Shown here one piece after another: positions 325-7,045 of a stretch of DNA of 64,000 nt. A model generated the notes under the pieces. It saw nothing but the letters and a program-made list of their open reading frames with translations. It made no database searches and had not been told where the DNA came from. Numbering within the stretch: position 1 is the stretch's first letter; each line of letters starts with the position of its first letter. The stretch covers positions 3,574 to 67,573 of the forward strand of contig DATMEX010000026.1 in assembly GCA_035556455.1 (NCBI GenBank). The letters are read 5' to 3'. Source of the DNA: Pseudolabrys sp. Lineage in GTDB: Bacteria; Pseudomonadota; Alphaproteobacteria; Rhizobiales; Xanthobacteraceae. A program made the position numbers and the translations under genes.

Positions 325-2394
325 CTAGCGGCCTTCCCGCGCCCACGTCAGCGCCAGCGAGCCGACCAGCAGCAGCAGGCCAATCAGCCCGGTGAAGATC
401 GGCAACACGCCGATGCCACGCACCACAGAGACATCGCGCATCTTCATGCCGATCCAGTCGTCGCCCTTGTAGGTCGAGGCCGTGCGCACCGGCACGACAC
501 GCGGCACTTCAACGCCGCCGGTGTTTTCGGCGAGGCGGCGCACGCTGCCGCCGGTGCCGTCCGCCAGCGAAGCCAGCGTTTGGGTCGTCGAGGTCACTTC
601 CTGGAATTCGCGCGGGTTGGCAGGGCCGACATTGACCAGAGCCGTCAGCTTGCCGTCGGTGGCGCGCCACAGGCCGAGTTCGTTGGCCGGCACCTGCGAG
701 CGCCACAGGCCGGGCTCGGCCGACGACAGCTTCAGCGTCTGGCTCTTGCCCGACGGTGAGGTCAGCGTCACATCGGCGACCGCGTCGGCCATGGTTTGGC
801 GCTGCACGGTCATGTCGCGGCCGCGCACGATCAGGCGCAGCGCTTCTTCCTCGAGGTCGGGCTGCTTCATCAGCCAGTGCGACAGCCGGCGCAGCAGATC
901 GAGATGCGGCCCGCCGCCTTCATAGCCGCGCGCCCACAGCCAGATGTGATCGGACAGCATAAGCGCGACGCGGCCTTCGCCCTCGCGCGCCAGCACTAGC
1001 AGCGGCTTGCCGTCTGGGCCTTCCATCACTGGCGTGCCGGTGGTGCGCTTGGTGTTGACCAGCCGGAACCAGTTGCTCCAGTGCGGCGGATCGACGTCGG
1101 AGCCTTCGAGGGCGCGGGTCACCGGATGGCGTTTGCCGGCTTCCGAAATGCGCGCCTTGAAGCTCTGCTCGGTGACGTCGCCGGACGGTTCGGCCGGCAG
1201 GATGACATCGAGCGGCGTGCGCCAGATCGAACTCGTCGACGCATAATCGGGGCCGGCCGCGATCATCACTGCGCCGCCGTTGCGGACGTAGCGCGCGATA
1301 TTGTCGAAATAGATCATCGGCAGCACGCCCTGCCGGGCGTAGCGGTCGAAGATGATGAGCTGGAATTCGCCGATCTTCTGCTGAAACAGCTCGCGGGTCG
1401 GGAAGGCGATCAGCGACAATTCGTTGATCGGCGTGCCGTCCTGCTTCTCCGGCGGCCGCAGAATGGTGAAGTGGACGAGATCGACCGAAGCGTCGGACTT
1501 GAGCAGATTGCGCCAGGTGCGCTCGCCGGCATGCGGTTCGCCTGACACCAGCAGCACGCGCAGCTTGTCGCGCACGCCGTCGATCGAAATGACGGCGCGG
1601 TTGTTGACCAGCGTGAGTTCATTGGCCAGCGGCGCCGCCTCGACTTCGACGATGTTCGGTCCGCCATGCGGAATCTGCACTTGCATGCGGACTTCGGCGC
1701 CGCCATTGACGGTGCGCTGTTCGAGCAGTTCGCCGTCGCGCCGTACGGTCACTTGCACAGGTCCGGCAGGCGCGCCCTGATCCTCGATCTTGAAGCCGAT
1801 GGTCTGCATCTGGCCGACAATGCCGAAGCGCGGCGTCTGCGTGAGCACGACGCGGCGGTCGATCTCGTTGGCGCGCCCGGTGATCAGCGCATGCAGCGGT
1901 GCCGCAAAGCCCAGCGCTGCGGCATTCGCCGGAATGTCGTGAACGCGGCCGTCGGTGATCATCACCGCGCCGGCAATACGGTCCGGCGGCACGTCCGCGA
2001 GCGTCGAGGACAGTGCGTTGAACAGCCGCGTGCCGTCGGTCTCGCCGTCGGCGGCGCCGGCTTCGGCGACGCGCACTTCGAGCCCGGCAATGCTCTTCAG
2101 GCGGTTGAGCAAAGTCTCGCGCGCCTGTTCGGTCTGCGCCTCGCGGTCGCCGAATTCCTGGCTGGGGCTCTTGTCGATTATGACGGCGGCCACGGACGGG
2201 ATCGGGTCGCGGTCCTCGCGCGTCATCGACGGATTGGCGAGCGCCAGTACAAGCAGCGCCATCGCGATCGAACGCATCACCGCGCCGCGGCTGCGCGCGA
2301 CCAGCAGGAGTATCGACAACAGCACGGCAACGCCGAACGCCGTCCAGACGACGTATTGCGGAACCAGAGGTGCGAAGGCGATGCCGAGATTCAT
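325..2394 (-). CDS. Membrane protein with vWA-like (DKSPS, TDG) and class I glutamine amidotransferase-like domains; last gene of the MoxR operon
   Basis: ORF 325..2403, with ATG at 2394 (MNLGIAF) preferred; N-terminal TM helices, IIDKSPSQ MIDAS-like motif, VLLVSGEPHAGERTWRNLLKSD, C-terminal TM. Confidence 0.8.
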   Translation of the reverse strand: MNLGIAFAPLVPQYVVWTAFGVAVLLSILLLVARSRGAVMRSIAMALLVLALANPSMTREDRDPIPSVAAVIIDKSPSQEFGDREAQTEQARETLLNRLKSIAGLEVRVAEAGAADGETDGTRLFNALSSTLADVPPDRIAGAVMITDGRVHDIPANAAALGFAAPLHALITGRANEIDRRVVLTQTPRFGIVGQMQTIGFKIEDQGAPAGPVQVTVRRDGELLEQRTVNGGAEVRMQVQIPHGGPNIVEVEAAPLANELTLVNNRAVISIDGVRDKLRVLLVSGEPHAGERTWRNLLKSDASVDLVHFTILRPPEKQDGTPINELSLIAFPTRELFQQKIGEFQLIIFDRYARQGVLPMIYFDNIARYVRNGGAVMIAAGPDYASTSSIWRTPLDVILPAEPSGDVTEQSFKARISEAGKRHPVTRALEGSDVDPPHWSNWFRLVNTKRTTGTPVMEGPDGKPLLVLAREGEGRVALMLSDHIWLWARGYEGGGPHLDLLRRLSHWLMKQPDLEEEALRLIVRGRDMTVQRQTMADAVADVTLTSPSGKSQTLKLSSAEPGLWRSQVPANELGLWRATDGKLTALVNVGPANPREFQEVTSTTQTLASLADGTGGSVRRLAENTGGVEVPRVVPVRTASTYKGDDWIGMKMRDVSVVRGIGVLPIFTGLIGLLLLVGSLALTWAREGR

Positions 2395-2396
2395 GG

Positions 2397-2795
2397 TCAA
2401 CACACCAAGGTGCGGACGTGGCCCGCGCGCGAGTATTCAAGTATTTGGCGGTCGCGCGTGACCACTGTCATGTCAGATTGCCGTGCCGTCGCGATGATGA
2501 TGCGATCGGCGGGATCGTCGGGCGGCGAGCCGGGCAGGTTGCACGAGCCTGTCAGCACCTCAACACTCAAAGGCGGCAGCTCGGCGGCCATCTTGCCCAC
2601 GGCTTGATTGAACCAGTTTGCCACCGGCAAGGTTGCGGCCATCTTGCCTTTGCGGACGAGGTTCGCGATTTCCCAGGCGCTGATTGGCGAAACGTTCAGC
2701 TTTCGGTCGATAATGGCGGACCGCGACGCCGGCGTCATATCGGCGCCTTGGGCGATCCAGAGAACGGCGCAAGTGTCGAGGAGGAGGTCACTCAT
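2397..2795 (-). CDS. vapC: PIN-domain (VapC-like) toxin of a type II TA system
   Basis: 132 aa with the PIN acidic quartet: LLDT (D7), SAWEI, DPADRIIIATA, TRD; ATGA overlap with the upstream ORF. Confidence 0.92.
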   Translation of the reverse strand: MSDLLLDTCAVLWIAQGADMTPASRSAIIDRKLNVSPISAWEIANLVRKGKMAATLPVANWFNQAVGKMAAELPPLSVEVLTGSCNLPGSPPDDPADRIIIATARQSDMTVVTRDRQILEYSRAGHVRTLVC

Positions 2796-3163
2796 GAGAG
2801 CAATCTCCCTTCCTCAGCGTTCCAGCGCTCATCTGTCGGCATCGTCAGGTCAACACCCGGCATGACTGTGATCGTGCCCGCCATGCAGCCCCAAGGATCG
2901 CTGTCAGGCTTTGGGGCGGCCTGAGCACGGCTGAAGGTTACCTTGCGGCTCGCAAGATCAACGCTTTCCGTGCGCCAGCCGAATTTGAGCCACGCGCGGG
3001 CGTGAGAATGTCCGGTCGCGTTATTGCTCCACCATGCTTCATGCTCATAGGCGCTCTTCGGTAGCTTGAAGCCCAGAATGCGCTCGATTTCGCCGAACCT
3101 CAGGCGATGCGCGGCACCGCCAACCGAACTGAGGAACTGCGGCAAAGGCTCATATTTGCTCAT
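2792..3163 (-). CDS. Putative antitoxin: DUF7662-like N-terminal domain plus VapB-like C-terminal tail
   Basis: 123 aa, MSKYEPL...LRFGEIERILGFKLPKSA...AWWSN...AWLKFGW followed by PWGCMAGTITVMPGVDLTMPTDERWNAE; AGGAG SD 6 nt upstream; coupled to vapC. Confidence 0.75.
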   Translation of the reverse strand: MSKYEPLPQFLSSVGGAAHRLRFGEIERILGFKLPKSAYEHEAWWSNNATGHSHARAWLKFGWRTESVDLASRKVTFSRAQAAPKPDSDPWGCMAGTITVMPGVDLTMPTDERWNAEEGRLLS

Positions 3164-3193
3164 GGCAAACTCCTATCGCTTGAGGCGATAGTA

Positions 3194-3228
3194 AGTTTAA
3201 ATAGTAAGTTACTATTGTCAATAGTAAC
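3194..3228 (-). promoter_or_regulatory. sigma70-type promoter (TTGACA-N16-TAAACT) overlapped by a perfect 10-bp inverted repeat (putative operator)
   Basis: Minus strand -35 TTGACA at 3221-3216 and -10 TAAACT at 3199-3194; GTTACTATTG-T-CAATAGTAAC at 3208-3228. Confidence 0.75.
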
Positions 3229-3230
3229 AT

Positions 3231-6092
3231 TCACTGCCCCAACCGTTCGAGCAGTGCGGGGATGTGCACCTGATCGGCCTTGTAGTTGCCGGTCAGCGCG
3301 TACATCACGATATTGACGCCGGCGCGGAAAGCGAATTCGCGCTGGCGCGGCTCGCCCGGCACCAGCGGCAGCATCGCCTGTCCGTCGGGCCGCAGCGCCC
3401 AGGCGCCGGCCAGATCGTTCGACGTGATCATGATCGAGGACACACCGTCACCGGCGCGTGCCGGACGGGTCGGATCTTCCTCGACCTCCGCGGGCAACGC
3501 CTCGACCCAGAGGCGGCCGGTGGTGAAGCGGCCGGGGAAGTCCTTCATCAAGAAGAACGTCTTGTTGAGGACATGATCGGGACGGATCGGCTCGAGCTCG
3601 GGCACGTCGAGCGACGACAGGATGTCGCGCAGCGCCACCATGCCCGGGGAGCGCGTTTCGCCGTCGGCGCCGGGCGGCGCGTCGATCGCATCGCGCGTGT
3701 CGAATAGCACGGTGCCGCCTTGCTTCATATAGGTGTCGATGCGGTCGAGCGTCTCGCGCGACGGCTTGGCGGCGCGCTCGGAGATCGGCCAGTAGATCAC
3801 CGGAAAGAACGACAACTCGTCGCGCGACGGATCGAGACCGACCGGTTCGCCGGGCTCGAGCGCGGTACGCTGCGCAAGAAACAGCGACAGGCCGGAGAGG
3901 CCGGCGCGGCTGACTTCATCGACTTCGGAGTCGCCGGTGATGATGTAGGCCAGATGCGTCTGCTGCGTCGCTTTGATGGCGTAGTCGAGTTGCTGCGGCG
4001 ACAGCGGCGTGCGTTGCGGCAGACTGCCCGGAGGCATCAGTGTCGACTGCGCACGGGCCTGATGCGGCATCGCCAGCGCGGCGGCGAGCGCGAACATCGC
4101 GATGGCCGCGGTGGCGGCGCTGCGGCGACGGGCGAAGGCGGCGGCGAGGCCGCCGGCCAGCACGAAGACCACCAGCGCGTCGAGCGCGATCAGGCCGAAC
4201 GCGGCCATGAACACCGGGCCGCGCAGATCGACCGGTTCGCCGAAGCGATAAACGTCCTGCCGCGCGTTGAGCGCGGTGAAGTTGAGCGGAGCGGGGCGAT
4301 CTTCGGGCAACAGCGTATTGACGGCGACCAGGCCCTCCGGCGGGCCGTAGAAACCCGGCGGATGGTCGTTGGTGGCGCGGCCGGCAAAGCCGGCGGGCAC
4401 GGGGCGCACGGTTGCCGGCGGCGTCGTGAACGCACCGAAGCCATCGAGCACGCGCGTCGCCGGCACCGCCTGGACATTGCCGCGGGTCGCGGCGTCGCCG
4501 TCGGCGGCCGGCGTCGCGCCGGCGAGCGACACGGTCTGGCGCAACATATCGACAAAGGCGCCGGACAGCGGCAGGTCGGACCAGCGCGTATCGGCGGTGA
4601 CATGGAACAGGACGACGAGACCCTTGCCGCGCTTCTGCGCGGTGACGAGCGGCGTACCGTCGGCGAGCGTCGCCCAGGTGCGATCGGCGAGCGTCGCATC
4701 GGGCTCGGCCAGCACTTGGCGGGTGACGGTGACGTCGTTCGGTACCGCCATCGAAGCGAAGGGGCCCTCGCGCGAGAAGGCGGCGAGTTGCTGCGGCTTC
4801 TCCCAGCTTAGCGCACCGCCGAGAATGCGGCCGCCGCGGCGCAGCCGCACCGGCACGAGATCGTCGCTGCCGGCGGCGAGATGCGGCCCGGCAAAGCGCA
4901 CCAGCACGCCGCCATTCTCGATCCAGGTATCGAGCCGGCCGCGCGCCTCGGCGACATTGCCGACATCGGCCAGCACCAGCATCGGCAGGCGCTGATCGAG
5001 GAAACGGCCGATCGCTTCGGCCGGCGCCACGCTTTCGGCGAGCCGCACGTCGGCGAAAGGATTGAGCGCGCGCGACAGATAGTAGCTCGCGCCGAGCAGC
5101 GGCTGCGAACGATCGGCGGCCGAGCCCGAGACGATGCCGATGGTGCGGCGACGCCAGCGATTGTCGAGCAGCTGCACCGCGCCGGCAGAACGCTCGCCGG
5201 CGATTTCGAGCCGCGCGACATCGTTACGAATCTCGACCGGCAGCGTGATGCGGGCTTCGGCCTCGCGGTCGCCGCTACCGAAGGCAAAAGGCGCATCGCC
5301 AAGCGGCAGGCCCTTGAGGTCGATGGCGTGAACGAGGCCGTTTTCGGACACGCCGGTCTGCGCGCGCAGCACCTTCACCGTGAGCGCGCCGGCGGCATTG
5401 TCGGCGGCGGCCAGCGCATGCGGAATGGTCGTGCCGCCCGACACCACGGTCATCGGCCGCGAACCAGCGATCTGCTTGAGGCCGTCGACGAAGCCCGCGC
5501 CTTTACCCATATCGACGCCATCCGACAGCCAGACGATCTCGGCCTCCGGCGTCGTCTTGAGGAACCGATCGATCACCGGCAGCGCCTCGACGCGGTCGAC
5601 CGAATGCGGTTTCGGCTTGAGCTGCTTGACCTGCACGCGCAAGGCGCCGGCGACCTGCAGCGAGATATCGCGCGCGGTTTCCGACAGCGGCAACAGCGCG
5701 ACGCCGCGATTGTCGGCTTCGGCGCGCGCCATCAATTCGTCGGCGGTGCGCAGCCGCACATCCCAGGCCGCGGCCGCGGCCCAGCCGTCATCGACGAGAA
5801 TGAGCAGCGGCGCGTTCTTTGCCCCGGTCGCGACCGGCGGATTCCATAACGGGCCGGCGGCGGCGAGAATGACCAGCGCCGCGAGCATGAGGCGCAAGAG
5901 GATCAGCCACCACGGCGTGCGCGACGGCGTCTCTTCCTTCGGCGCGATCTCGAACAGGAGCCGCGTCGGCGGGAACGACACGACGCGCGGCCGCGGCGGC
6001 ACGAGGCGCAGCAGCCACCACAGCACCGGCAGCGACAACAGGCCGAGCAGGATCAGCGGCTGGGCGAAGGCGAGCGGGAGCGAACCGATCAT
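3231..6092 (-). CDS. BatA N-terminal / vWA-like / DUF4159 domain membrane protein
   Basis: True start MIGSLPLAF at 6092 (ATGA overlap with DUF58 stop); PLILLGLLSLPVLWWLLRLVPPRP is BatA-like; C-terminal LFFPVIYWP...RAGVNIVMYALTGNYKADQVH is DUF4159-like. Confidence 0.85.
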   Translation of the reverse strand: MIGSLPLAFAQPLILLGLLSLPVLWWLLRLVPPRPRVVSFPPTRLLFEIAPKEETPSRTPWWLILLRLMLAALVILAAAGPLWNPPVATGAKNAPLLILVDDGWAAAAAWDVRLRTADELMARAEADNRGVALLPLSETARDISLQVAGALRVQVKQLKPKPHSVDRVEALPVIDRFLKTTPEAEIVWLSDGVDMGKGAGFVDGLKQIAGSRPMTVVSGGTTIPHALAAADNAAGALTVKVLRAQTGVSENGLVHAIDLKGLPLGDAPFAFGSGDREAEARITLPVEIRNDVARLEIAGERSAGAVQLLDNRWRRRTIGIVSGSAADRSQPLLGASYYLSRALNPFADVRLAESVAPAEAIGRFLDQRLPMLVLADVGNVAEARGRLDTWIENGGVLVRFAGPHLAAGSDDLVPVRLRRGGRILGGALSWEKPQQLAAFSREGPFASMAVPNDVTVTRQVLAEPDATLADRTWATLADGTPLVTAQKRGKGLVVLFHVTADTRWSDLPLSGAFVDMLRQTVSLAGATPAADGDAATRGNVQAVPATRVLDGFGAFTTPPATVRPVPAGFAGRATNDHPPGFYGPPEGLVAVNTLLPEDRPAPLNFTALNARQDVYRFGEPVDLRGPVFMAAFGLIALDALVVFVLAGGLAAAFARRRSAATAAIAMFALAAALAMPHQARAQSTLMPPGSLPQRTPLSPQQLDYAIKATQQTHLAYIITGDSEVDEVSRAGLSGLSLFLAQRTALEPGEPVGLDPSRDELSFFPVIYWPISERAAKPSRETLDRIDTYMKQGGTVLFDTRDAIDAPPGADGETRSPGMVALRDILSSLDVPELEPIRPDHVLNKTFFLMKDFPGRFTTGRLWVEALPAEVEEDPTRPARAGDGVSSIMITSNDLAGAWALRPDGQAMLPLVPGEPRQREFAFRAGVNIVMYALTGNYKADQVHIPALLERLGQ

Positions 6093-7045
6093 GCCACGCT
6101 CCCGGTGTGCCGGCTGTTGACCGCGGTCTGGATCGAGTGCGCGCCCATGCGGCCATGCAGTGCGAACAGCAATTCGGTCGGGCCGCGGTCGGTGCGATGC
6201 ACGGTGAAGGTCCAGCCGAACGCCTCTGTCTCGGCGCGCAGCGCGGCGCGATGATTGGCGAGCAGCGCCTGATAATCGTTGCGCCAGGTCTCGGCCCGGC
6301 CGGCGGTGACGCTGCCGAGGCCTTCGGACTCGACGAACTCGACGCGGCCGGAATAGGGGAAAGTCTCTTCCGCCGGATCGCACACCTGCACGACATGCCC
6401 GCGCGCGCCATTGGCGGCGAGCTGGCCGATCATCTTGCGATATTCGGCGATCGGGCTCCACAGGTCGGAGAATATCACGACTTCGGAATAGGGCGCCGGC
6501 GCGAAGTTCGGCGGCAGGCTCGGCCGCTCGGTGGTGTCATGGATGATGCGTTGCGCCATGGTCTCGATGACATTGCGGCTGGCGGTCGGCCGCATCAGCA
6601 GCGGGATGCCGACACGTTCGCCGCCCTGCACCAGCACTTCCGAGAGCGCAAAGGATACGACCAGCGCGCGGTCGAGCTTCGACCACTCGGTCAGATGCGA
6701 CGAGAATTCCATCGACGGCGAGCGGTCGGCCCACATCCAGATCGTATGCGAGGCCTCCCATTCGCGCTCGCGCACATAGAGATGGTCGTCGCGCGCCGAG
6801 CGCCGCCAGTCGATGCGGCTGGCCGGTTCGCCGGACGTGAAGTGCCGATATTGCCAGAAGTTCTCGCCGGTGCCGGCGCGGCGGCGGCCGTGCAGGCCAT
6901 GGATCAGCGTCGCCGCGACCCGCCGCGCCTCGAGGATGAGGCGTGGAATGCGGGCGGCCAGTTTGCTGCTCTTGCCGGCCGCGGCATTGACCGGCGTCGC
7001 GCTGGTTCCTGTAACGGTCGGCTCGGCCAAAACGTTGTCCGCCAT
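6089..7045 (-). CDS. DUF58 domain protein (MoxR partner)
   Basis: Start MADNV at 7045; HGRRRAGTGENFWQYRHF, RIDWRRSAR, VREREWE and DRSPSM motifs. Confidence 0.9.
   Translation of the reverse strand: MADNVLAEPTVTGTSATPVNAAAGKSSKLAARIPRLILEARRVAATLIHGLHGRRRAGTGENFWQYRHFTSGEPASRIDWRRSARDDHLYVREREWEASHTIWMWADRSPSMEFSSHLTEWSKLDRALVVSFALSEVLVQGGERVGIPLLMRPTASRNVIETMAQRIIHDTTERPSLPPNFAPAPYSEVVIFSDLWSPIAEYRKMIGQLAANGARGHVVQVCDPAEETFPYSGRVEFVESEGLGSVTAGRAETWRNDYQALLANHRAALRAETEAFGWTFTVHRTDRGPTELLFALHGRMGAHSIQTAVNSRHTGSVA

Follow-up and report, generated by a model that had tools for sequence, protein, structure and literature searches.

The AT-rich intergenic gap of 67 bp at positions 3164–3230 of a 64,000-nucleotide stretch of Pseudolabrys sp. 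DNA (contig DATMEX010000026.1; the whole stretch is called the window below, and all positions refer to it) is probably the promoter and autorepression operator of a type II toxin–antitoxin (TA) operon that makes use of a new DNA-binding module. The gap separates an upstream stop codon from the ATG of an antitoxin gene, whose product carries an N-terminal DUF7662 domain and whose partner is a PIN toxin. Four copies of the heptamer TTACTAT/ATAGTAA are packed within 40 bp of this gap, and we consider it likely that the antitoxin or the TA complex binds them and represses the operon. An earlier note, made from the letters of the window, had already proposed the promoter and operator of a type II TA operon at this place. 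That proposal holds up well, as the antitoxin and PIN genes are bicistronic, the repeats lie over the -35 and -10 elements, and the arrangement is kept in 38 species.

On the coding (minus) strand, the gap reads GTTACTAT-TGACA-ATAGTAAC-TTACTAT-TTAAAC-TTACTAT-CGCCTCAAGCGATAGGAGTTTGCC-ATG. A promoter scan found a sole sigma-70-like site in 1.3 kb, TTGACA-16 nt-TAAACT on the minus strand (10 of 12 matches), and shuffled versions of the region gave a mean of 0.2 such sites. The transcription start, when placed from the -10 element, is predicted at about 3187. The elements of the gap are as follows:

3216..3221, minus strand: -35 element TTGACA, from the promoter scan
3194..3199, minus strand: -10 element TAAACT, from the promoter scan, after a 16-nt spacer
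3170..3174, minus strand: Shine–Dalgarno sequence AGGAG, lying 6 nt ahead of the start codon (ATG at 3163)
3221..3227, minus strand: half-site A, directly 5' of the -35 element, with TTACTAT as its coding-strand sequence
3209..3215, minus strand: half-site B, immediately 3' of the -35 element and in the opposite orientation to A, with ATAGTAA as its coding-strand sequence
3201..3207, minus strand: half-site C, TTACTAT in the window, in the promoter spacer
3188..3194, minus strand: half-site D, TTACTAT, running from the last base of the -10 element across the predicted start
3208-3217 and 3219-3228: arms GTTACTATTG and CAATAGTAAC of a perfect 21-bp palindrome with 1 nt between them, made of A, B and their flanks and centred on the -35 element
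3200-3216: second perfect palindrome, AATAGTAA-G-TTACTATT, made of B and C and sharing an arm with the first
3173..3191, minus strand: 7-bp hairpin CUAUCGC-CUCAA-GCGAUAG with a 5-nt loop, arms 3173-3179 and 3185-3191 (CTATCGC and GCGATAG)

The heptamers thus follow one another in the order forward, inverted, forward, forward. Their centres are 20 bp apart from A to C and 21 bp apart from B to D, or about two helical turns, and the centres of the two palindromes are 10 bp apart. Every repeat that the earlier note listed is present where it had been placed, including the perfect inverted repeat that contains the -35 element (the palindrome at 3208-3228 spans TTGACA at 3221..3216), the two copies of ATAGTAAGTT at 3188-3197 and 3201-3210, and the further ATAGTAA at 3221-3227. 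The first of the two 10-mers does lie over most of the -10 element (four of its six bases), and an arm of the hairpin overlaps the AGGAG as claimed. The list was correct as far as it went. However, it omitted the inverted heptamer at 3209-3215 and the palindrome at 3200-3216, and its layout of independent palindromes gives way to one of four heptamers arranged around the -35 and -10 elements.

Part of the evidence for this interpretation comes from relatives at the same genomic slot. A scan that used one genome per species found 49 loci, among which 40 have full-length antitoxin relatives. Across the best aligned segment, the antitoxins of L001-L039 are 62-82% identical to that of the window, and that of L040 (Caulobacter) is 46% identical. 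In L001-L038, L040 and L044, the antitoxin is followed by a full-length PIN gene, and L039 retains toxin residues 24-132 only. With the exception of L038, the cassettes of L001-L039 directly follow the same gene, whose product ends in ...ERLGQ. For the conservation counts, 38 loci from distinct species, with gaps of 65-82 bp, were aligned into one architecture, and column identity was taken as the match to the majority base.

Sites A and B are nearly invariant in this alignment. No more than one mismatch is seen at A in 37 of the 38 loci (column identity 0.97) and at B in all 38 (0.96). Site C is matched with at most one mismatch in 34 loci (column identity 0.77), although here two forms alternate at the same position: 26 loci carry TTCATAT and eight carry TTACTAT. 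The TTACTAT that the earlier note had given for this third site is therefore the form of the window but TTCATAT in most relatives. It is exact in the window, L012, L026, L028 and L018 (the last with G for T just after it), and L022 has one mismatch (GTACTAT). The palindrome at 3200-3216 is present only where site C is TTACTAT. Site D is found in 28 of 38 loci, again allowing one mismatch. The spacing between centres is 12 bp from A to B in 27 of 38 loci, 8 bp from B to C in 32 of 38, and 13 bp from C to D in 21 of the 28 loci with a site D.

By comparison, the TTGACA hexamer is exact in 20 of 38 loci and is less conserved than the half-sites A and B that flank it. Column identity falls to 0.53 in the -10 region and to 0.46 over the 4 nt that precede A, and fourfold degenerate positions within invariant codons of the neighbouring antitoxin gene stand at 0.48. 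Neutral positions are saturated, and the heptamers are, on this alignment, under strong sequence-specific constraint. Because A and B are conserved above the -35 element that lies between them, contacts with RNA polymerase alone would be an insufficient explanation. As judged from these comparisons, the gap is a real and strongly conserved control region.

The motif is also rare elsewhere. The window has six copies of ATAGTAA where 0.22 would be expected, and four of the six are in this gap. The whole genome (4.70 Mb in 89 contigs, 64.4% G+C) holds 60 copies on both strands, and the gap is its sole place with at least two heptamer copies within 60 bp. The 19-bp palindrome has a single exact occurrence. 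A search for near-matches to it returned one other candidate, ATACTATTTGTTATGGTAA at C81:196742-196760, which was rejected as it has two mismatches, is at chance level and adjoins no DUF7662 gene. We read the operator as a single-target site, since the genome holds no other cluster of this motif. To our knowledge, the palindrome is unlike the CtrA site TTAA-N7-TTAA, the alphaproteobacterial LexA box, the Fur, Irr and RirA boxes and the DnaA box.

Eight further loci (L042-L049) have the slot too, flanked as in the window by the BatA/DUF4159 gene and the 692-amino-acid (692-aa) gene. Each holds only an open reading frame (ORF) of 59-77 aa, at about 2420-2630 of its locus (for example 2423-2611 in L047 and 2435-2626 in L049), which encodes the antitoxin tail DPWGCMAGT..DLT.P..W behind a lysine-rich or degenerate head. 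The DUF7662 part is gone, the PIN gene is absent or a fragment, and the AT-rich operator is gone as well, the gap being much shorter or free of heptamers. L041 is another tail-only match with a different sequence in front. By this comparison, the putative operator comes and goes with the TA cassette. The tail-only ORFs may be decaying relics, or they may be retained as tail-only antitoxins against PIN proteins encoded elsewhere.

Additional support comes from distant members of the family. Profile searches with PF24698 found DUF7662 in 14 of 401 genomes of a phylum-level draw and in 46 of 401 of an order-level draw. The resulting sample comprises 41 loci. In 24 of them, all in other genera, a PIN gene comes after a gene for DUF7662, a variable linker and a tail, and 17 have DUF7662 without PIN. 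Many of the tails in the former group share a G.mkGt...DLT.P...W pattern, and the regions upstream of these operons are AT-rich and repeat-rich around a TTGAC. At least two copies of [AT]ACTAT are present within 100 nt upstream in six of the 24 DUF7662-PIN loci (shuffle mean 0.19, maximum 2 in 500), in none of the 17 DUF7662 genes without PIN, and in no control region 400-500 nt upstream. In L074 (TAGTAACTATTGACT...AACTATAACTATAGTTAC) and L079 (GGTACTATTGACA...GTAACTAT), the motif abuts the -35 element as it does in the window, with GTAACTAT or GTACTAT set directly against TTGAC. L059 carries GATAGTA-ATA-TACTATC, and L056 has four AACTAT copies over the two strands (two AATAGTT, one AACTATT and one AACTAT).

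Other distant operons use other repeats, namely ACATGT or TGTACA (L070, L073, L084), CACACAC (L075, L080, L088) and TCATATGA twice (L076). More generally, some hexamer occurs at least three times upstream in nine of the 24 DUF7662-PIN loci (shuffle mean 0.58) versus one of the 17 without PIN. Inverted symmetry was considered as a family-wide rule and discarded, as a test for the best inverted repeat was clearly significant in L058 only and borderline in L056 and L059. The rule for the family, as far as these upstream regions tell, is multi-copy short repeats and not inverted symmetry. The motif search upstream of DUF7662 homologues that the earlier note had suggested is thus borne out for a subset of the DUF7662-PIN operons, though not for all of them.

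The residues just after an invariant WWSNN in the antitoxin (residues 49-56, about 2996-3019 of the window on the minus strand) track the type of promoter repeat in a small and phylogenetically uncorrected sample (the window and loci among L053-L089). GHS[HQ] is found with ACTAT or CATATG sites (the window, L056, L059 and L076), NSVIT or NSAIT with GTA(A)CTAT (L074, L079, L083 and L087), and NNVMT (NSTMT in L070) with ACATGT or CACAC repeats. L089, another ACTAT locus, reads SHVQ after WWSNN. As a separate observation, the antitoxin of L076 has the same GHSHARAW helix as the protein of the window, and its upstream 100 nt hold ATCATATGAT twice. This repeat shares its core with TTCATATGAA, the sequence that most orthologues of this locus have in place of site C.

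The domain that might recognize such sites is poorly documented. Pfam matches the antitoxin to DUF7662 alone (E 6.5e-16), and NCBIfam gives no match. Neither these two databases nor a sequence comparison with the PDB matched its N-domain to AbrB, ribbon-helix-helix (RHH), Phd/YefM or HTH-Xre, and no paper that mentions DUF7662 was found in the library searched. The AlphaFold2 model of the domain (predicted local distance difference test score (pLDDT) 88, predicted template modelling score (pTM) 0.76, with the tail 81-123 at low confidence) places helix 6-14, strand 18-22, helices 23-30, 36-45 and 53-60, and strands 63-69 and 74-79 in that order. This order resembles the winged-helix topology of helix-strand-helix-helix-strand-strand, with one extra helix. 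The best PDB matches in a Foldseek search are nearly all winged-helix proteins, including the CodY DNA-binding domain, DNA-bound MarR-family regulators, the Stn1 winged helix, SarA and RepE (query-normalised TM 0.45-0.52), and together with the modelled topology they suggest that DUF7662 may be winged-helix-like.

The company that DUF7662 keeps is further indirect evidence that it binds DNA. Two plasmid-borne HNH_2 endonucleases (Caballeronia and Paraburkholderia) carry the domain at their N-terminus, and a plasmid-borne haloarchaeal protein with an NCBI annotation as GIY-YIG nuclease carries it at the C-terminus (fusion loci L095 1501-2742, L097 1444-2274 and L096 898-1731). These are positions where a DNA-targeting module would sit. 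As with other nuclease-associated DNA-binding modules, these HNH and GIY-YIG fusions carry DUF7662 on the nuclease, whereas the DUF7662 of the window is joined to an antitoxin tail. The earlier note had taken TTACTAT/ATAGTAA to be the half-site of this domain. The heptamer does behave as a sequence-specific element, given that A and B are 96-97% invariant and that the cluster has no second occurrence in the genome and is linked to the cassette. That DUF7662 itself is the binder is something we infer from the winged-helix-like model, the nuclease fusions and the co-occurrence.

Autorepression of type II TA operons through promoter repeats is textbook biology, and the switch proposed here is itself ordinary. 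In VapBC systems, the N-domain of the antitoxin binds promoter repeats, and the toxin co-represses through a VapB4C4 octamer with cooperative binding (PMC3378870, PMC5389673). By analogy with VapBC, the DUF7662 N-domain would read the heptamers, the C-terminal tail of the antitoxin would hold the PIN toxin, and toxin dimers would probably bridge antitoxins such that several sites are filled together, in line with the cooperative binding that the earlier note had inferred. The filled sites would then exclude RNA polymerase from the promoter. Like the operon of the window, the vapBC operons of Salmonella LT2 and Shigella pMYSH6000 (operators vapO1 and vapO2), FitAB and Caulobacter crescentus VapBC1 are bicistronic antitoxin-PIN units with repeats over the -35 and -10 elements. 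They share with it a two-part antitoxin in which an N-terminal DNA-binding domain (a candidate one in our case) precedes a C-terminal tail that wraps the toxin. Their antitoxins, however, have AbrB or ribbon-helix-helix domains and use two separate inverted repeats, whereas the window has DUF7662 and four 7-bp units.

Another useful comparison is with the type IV abiE system. The winged-helix N-domain of AbiEi/Rv2827c binds several repeats over its own promoter and start and autoregulates, and AbiEi homologues differ in repeat number and in the type of cooperativity (PMC7319586). The multi-repeat promoter is alike in the two systems, although the winged helix of DUF7662 is model-based with non-significant matches. 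AbiEi also differs in having 23-bp repeats and a DUF1814 nucleotidyltransferase toxin where the window has 7-bp heptamers and a PIN toxin, and no sequence relation between AbiEi and DUF7662 is detectable. We found no published description of this operator or of a DUF7662 system like it. The kind of element is already well known, and what is new here is the DNA-binding module and the layout of its sites.

The control region holds a second conserved structure. The 7-bp hairpin shares bases with site D through its 5' arm (3191..3185) and with the first 2 nt of the Shine–Dalgarno sequence through its 3' arm. The canonical form is seen in 18 of 38 loci, with loops of 5-7 nt that are unrelated in sequence, and across the full alignment 79% of the hairpin cells are paired. 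Covariation between the arms is 0.259, compared with 0.186 in shuffles (none of 500 reached the observed value), and sliding the partner gives 0.06-0.15. Twelve loci have the inner triplets CGC/GCG, four have CGT/ACG and one has TGC/GCA. At the innermost position, 14 loci pair C-G, six U-A, three U-G and two G-U. The four CGT/ACG loci are dispersed on the tree of the TA genes, each beside CGC lineages, and this implies about four independent compensations. There are also two intermediates, CGT/GCG (L012) and TGT/GCG (L029), that leave a G-U pair on the sense strand and an A-C mismatch on the other, and sense RNA is favoured because they pair on the sense strand only. These patterns support a sense-strand RNA stem that has been kept by selection in one clade.

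What such a stem might do depends on where transcription begins. A fold that starts at 3191 gives the 7-bp hairpin at the very 5' end (free energy, dG, -11.6), a start at 3200 or further upstream gives a 14-bp stem that buries GGAG (dG -14.3), and an 81-nt RNA forms two hairpins (dG -23.9, z -5.1). Since the predicted start lies inside the 5' arm, the full hairpin would be present only in read-through or earlier-start transcripts. Read-through transcripts that contain the whole stem are likely, because no terminator was found between the BatA/DUF4159 gene and the cassette and because the downstream host gene would have to be expressed through the cassette. Two weak upstream promoters whose transcripts would include the whole hairpin (GTGAAT-17-TAACTT and GTTACT-16-TCATAT) were set aside, as a reading of the sequence gives them about 6 of 12 matches. 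The hairpin would most plausibly act on read-through transcripts from the BatA/DUF4159 gene or on transcripts with an earlier start, where it might limit ribosome access or protect the 5' end. Unrelated hairpins cover the Shine–Dalgarno sequence in several divergent loci without site D (L033 and L036), which fits an RNA-level role, and an Rfam search returned nothing. Our claim is restricted to the 7-bp inner stem. We lean, by a modest measure, towards the view that it functions as RNA, and we are doubtful that its effect is on translation. The leader hairpin of the earlier note is thus real and shows compensatory changes, but the further statement that it tunes translation goes beyond what these results show, given a predicted start within the 5' arm.

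Several observations weigh against this overall interpretation of the gap. The spacing between A and B ranges from 10 to 13 bp among species, which is unusual for a rigid dimer site, and the order of the four heptamers is unlike the two-palindrome layout of studied VapBC operators. Among distant DUF7662-PIN operons, the ACTAT core is limited to a subset. The eight remnant loci give confounded evidence, in that toxin and promoter decayed alongside DUF7662, and the joint loss does not single out DUF7662 as the binder because the toxin decayed too. With regard to the domain, all Foldseek matches are non-significant (E 0.18 or worse, the best being 0.18-0.6), no sequence relative of DUF7662 was found in the PDB, and there is no weak Pfam link from it to any helix-turn-helix (HTH) family. 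Four proteins of 769-1314 aa (P0121-P0124) carry 7-10 tandem copies of DUF7662, which is atypical for a simple repressor domain. As for the leader, an RNA that begins at the predicted start of 3187 folds without a hairpin (dG -6.0, z -0.4). The 14-bp stem, in which the -10 region pairs with the sequence after the Shine–Dalgarno, was rejected, as cognate pairings have a mean of -11.48 versus -11.18 kcal/mol for non-cognate ones (p = 0.21).

Given these difficulties, it seems appropriate to ask whether the heptamers might be bound by another, host-encoded regulator, with DUF7662 serving for sensing or protein–protein contact. The non-significant fold matches and the tandem DUF7662 arrays would be more easily accommodated by this explanation, and a cassette that sits inside a conserved host operon could well be controlled by a host factor. 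However, a motif cluster that is unique in the genome leaves such a regulator without a regulon, and the cluster appears and disappears with the TA cassette. Related repeats also stand before unlinked DUF7662-PIN operons in other genera and contexts, and DUF7662 is fused to DNA nucleases. We therefore regard a host regulator as improbable. It is far less probable that the repeats are functionless leftovers of cassette insertion, such as a recombination site or terminal repeat. The first palindrome does begin 2-17 nt after the upstream stop codon, at the upstream edge of the cassette, but no matching repeat exists at the other end, where the toxin stop codon overlaps the next gene. Moreover, the sites fall exactly on promoter elements, and a heptamer identity of 96-97% over 38 species, with neutral sites saturated, is not what leftovers would retain.

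Two other explanations concern the palindromes as structures. They might act as RNA hairpins in read-through transcripts (for processing, stability or insulation) and not as protein-bound DNA, a possibility that gains from the lack of a terminator between the upstream gene and the cassette, from the strongly folding 81-nt RNA, from the variable A-B spacing, which would be the length of a loop, and from the downstream hairpin that clearly evolves as a paired structure. Nevertheless, the true hairpin downstream shows compensation, whereas A and B are sequence-invariant without compensatory changes although neutral sites are saturated. Copies C and D, which lie in direct orientation, would be needless for a stem, and in L074 and L079 a related heptamer abuts TTGAC just as site A does. 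We consider this explanation quite improbable for the heptamers. For the CTATCGC/GCGATAG repeat, the converse proposal is that a mutational process or a role at the DNA level (quasi-palindrome correction, or a further protein site) keeps the arms matched. The predicted start inside the 5' arm agrees with it, and the outer CTAT/ATAG is already constrained by site D and the Shine–Dalgarno sequence. Yet the loop is free in length (5-7 nt) and sequence, contrary to a protein site of fixed spacing, the L012 and L029 intermediates form G-U on the sense strand and A-C on the other, and about four independent compensations have accumulated. A DNA-level origin for this hairpin is unlikely in our view.

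If the autorepression reading is correct, its value would lie mainly in the domain. DUF7662 forms 4,635 representative clusters at 50% identity (E up to 0.001), and the gap provides this uncharacterised family with a conserved 7-bp candidate target together with natural operator variants. The target could lead to the function of the domain, a comparison of lineages could give a first recognition code, and the answer would bear on how HNH and GIY-YIG nucleases are targeted. A bolder view, which we offer tentatively and regard as rather unlikely, is that DUF7662 constitutes a large family of sequence-specific DNA-binding domains that serve as the repressor head in a widespread class of VapB-type antitoxins and as an HNH or GIY-YIG targeting module in other proteins. 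Part of the specificity would then be legible in residues 51-56, where the helix after WWSNN begins. In this lineage, with the cassette fixed in the host BatA/DUF4159 operon, the operator and the leader hairpin would then also gate the downstream host gene.

The genes around the gap form a run on one strand in the order DUF58, BatA/DUF4159, TA pair and 692-aa gene, with the TA cassette wedged inside:

3231-6461, minus strand: upstream gene, 1076 aa, Pfam BatA and DUF4159
2792..3163, minus strand: antitoxin gene, 123 aa, with DUF7662 at residues 4-79 ahead of a variable linker and a conserved tail
2397..2795, minus strand: VapC-like PIN toxin gene, 132 aa (PF01850, E 3.4e-9)
325-2403, minus strand: downstream gene, a 692-aa membrane protein whose start is overlapped by the PIN stop (2397-2403)

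The antitoxin tail carries the motif DPWGCMAGT..DLT.P...WNAE. The antitoxin gene comes before the toxin gene, whose start overlaps the antitoxin stop by 4 nt (ATGA), and the translated toxin has the acidic active-site residues D7, E42, D95 and D114. This antitoxin gene is the one DUF7662 gene of the whole genome, and a PADLOC search returned nothing. A cassette that lies in a conserved host operon, is inherited vertically across a bacterial family and decays in some members offers a case for studying how TA modules are retained and lost. Given its position within the run of genes, the TA promoter and operator may also affect the downstream host gene. Finally, an imperfect inverted repeat (CACTGCCCCAAC and GTTCGAGCAGTG, 83% complementary) adjoins the operator at 3232-3256. 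It occupies the last codons of the upstream gene and, lying within coding sequence, is probably incidental.

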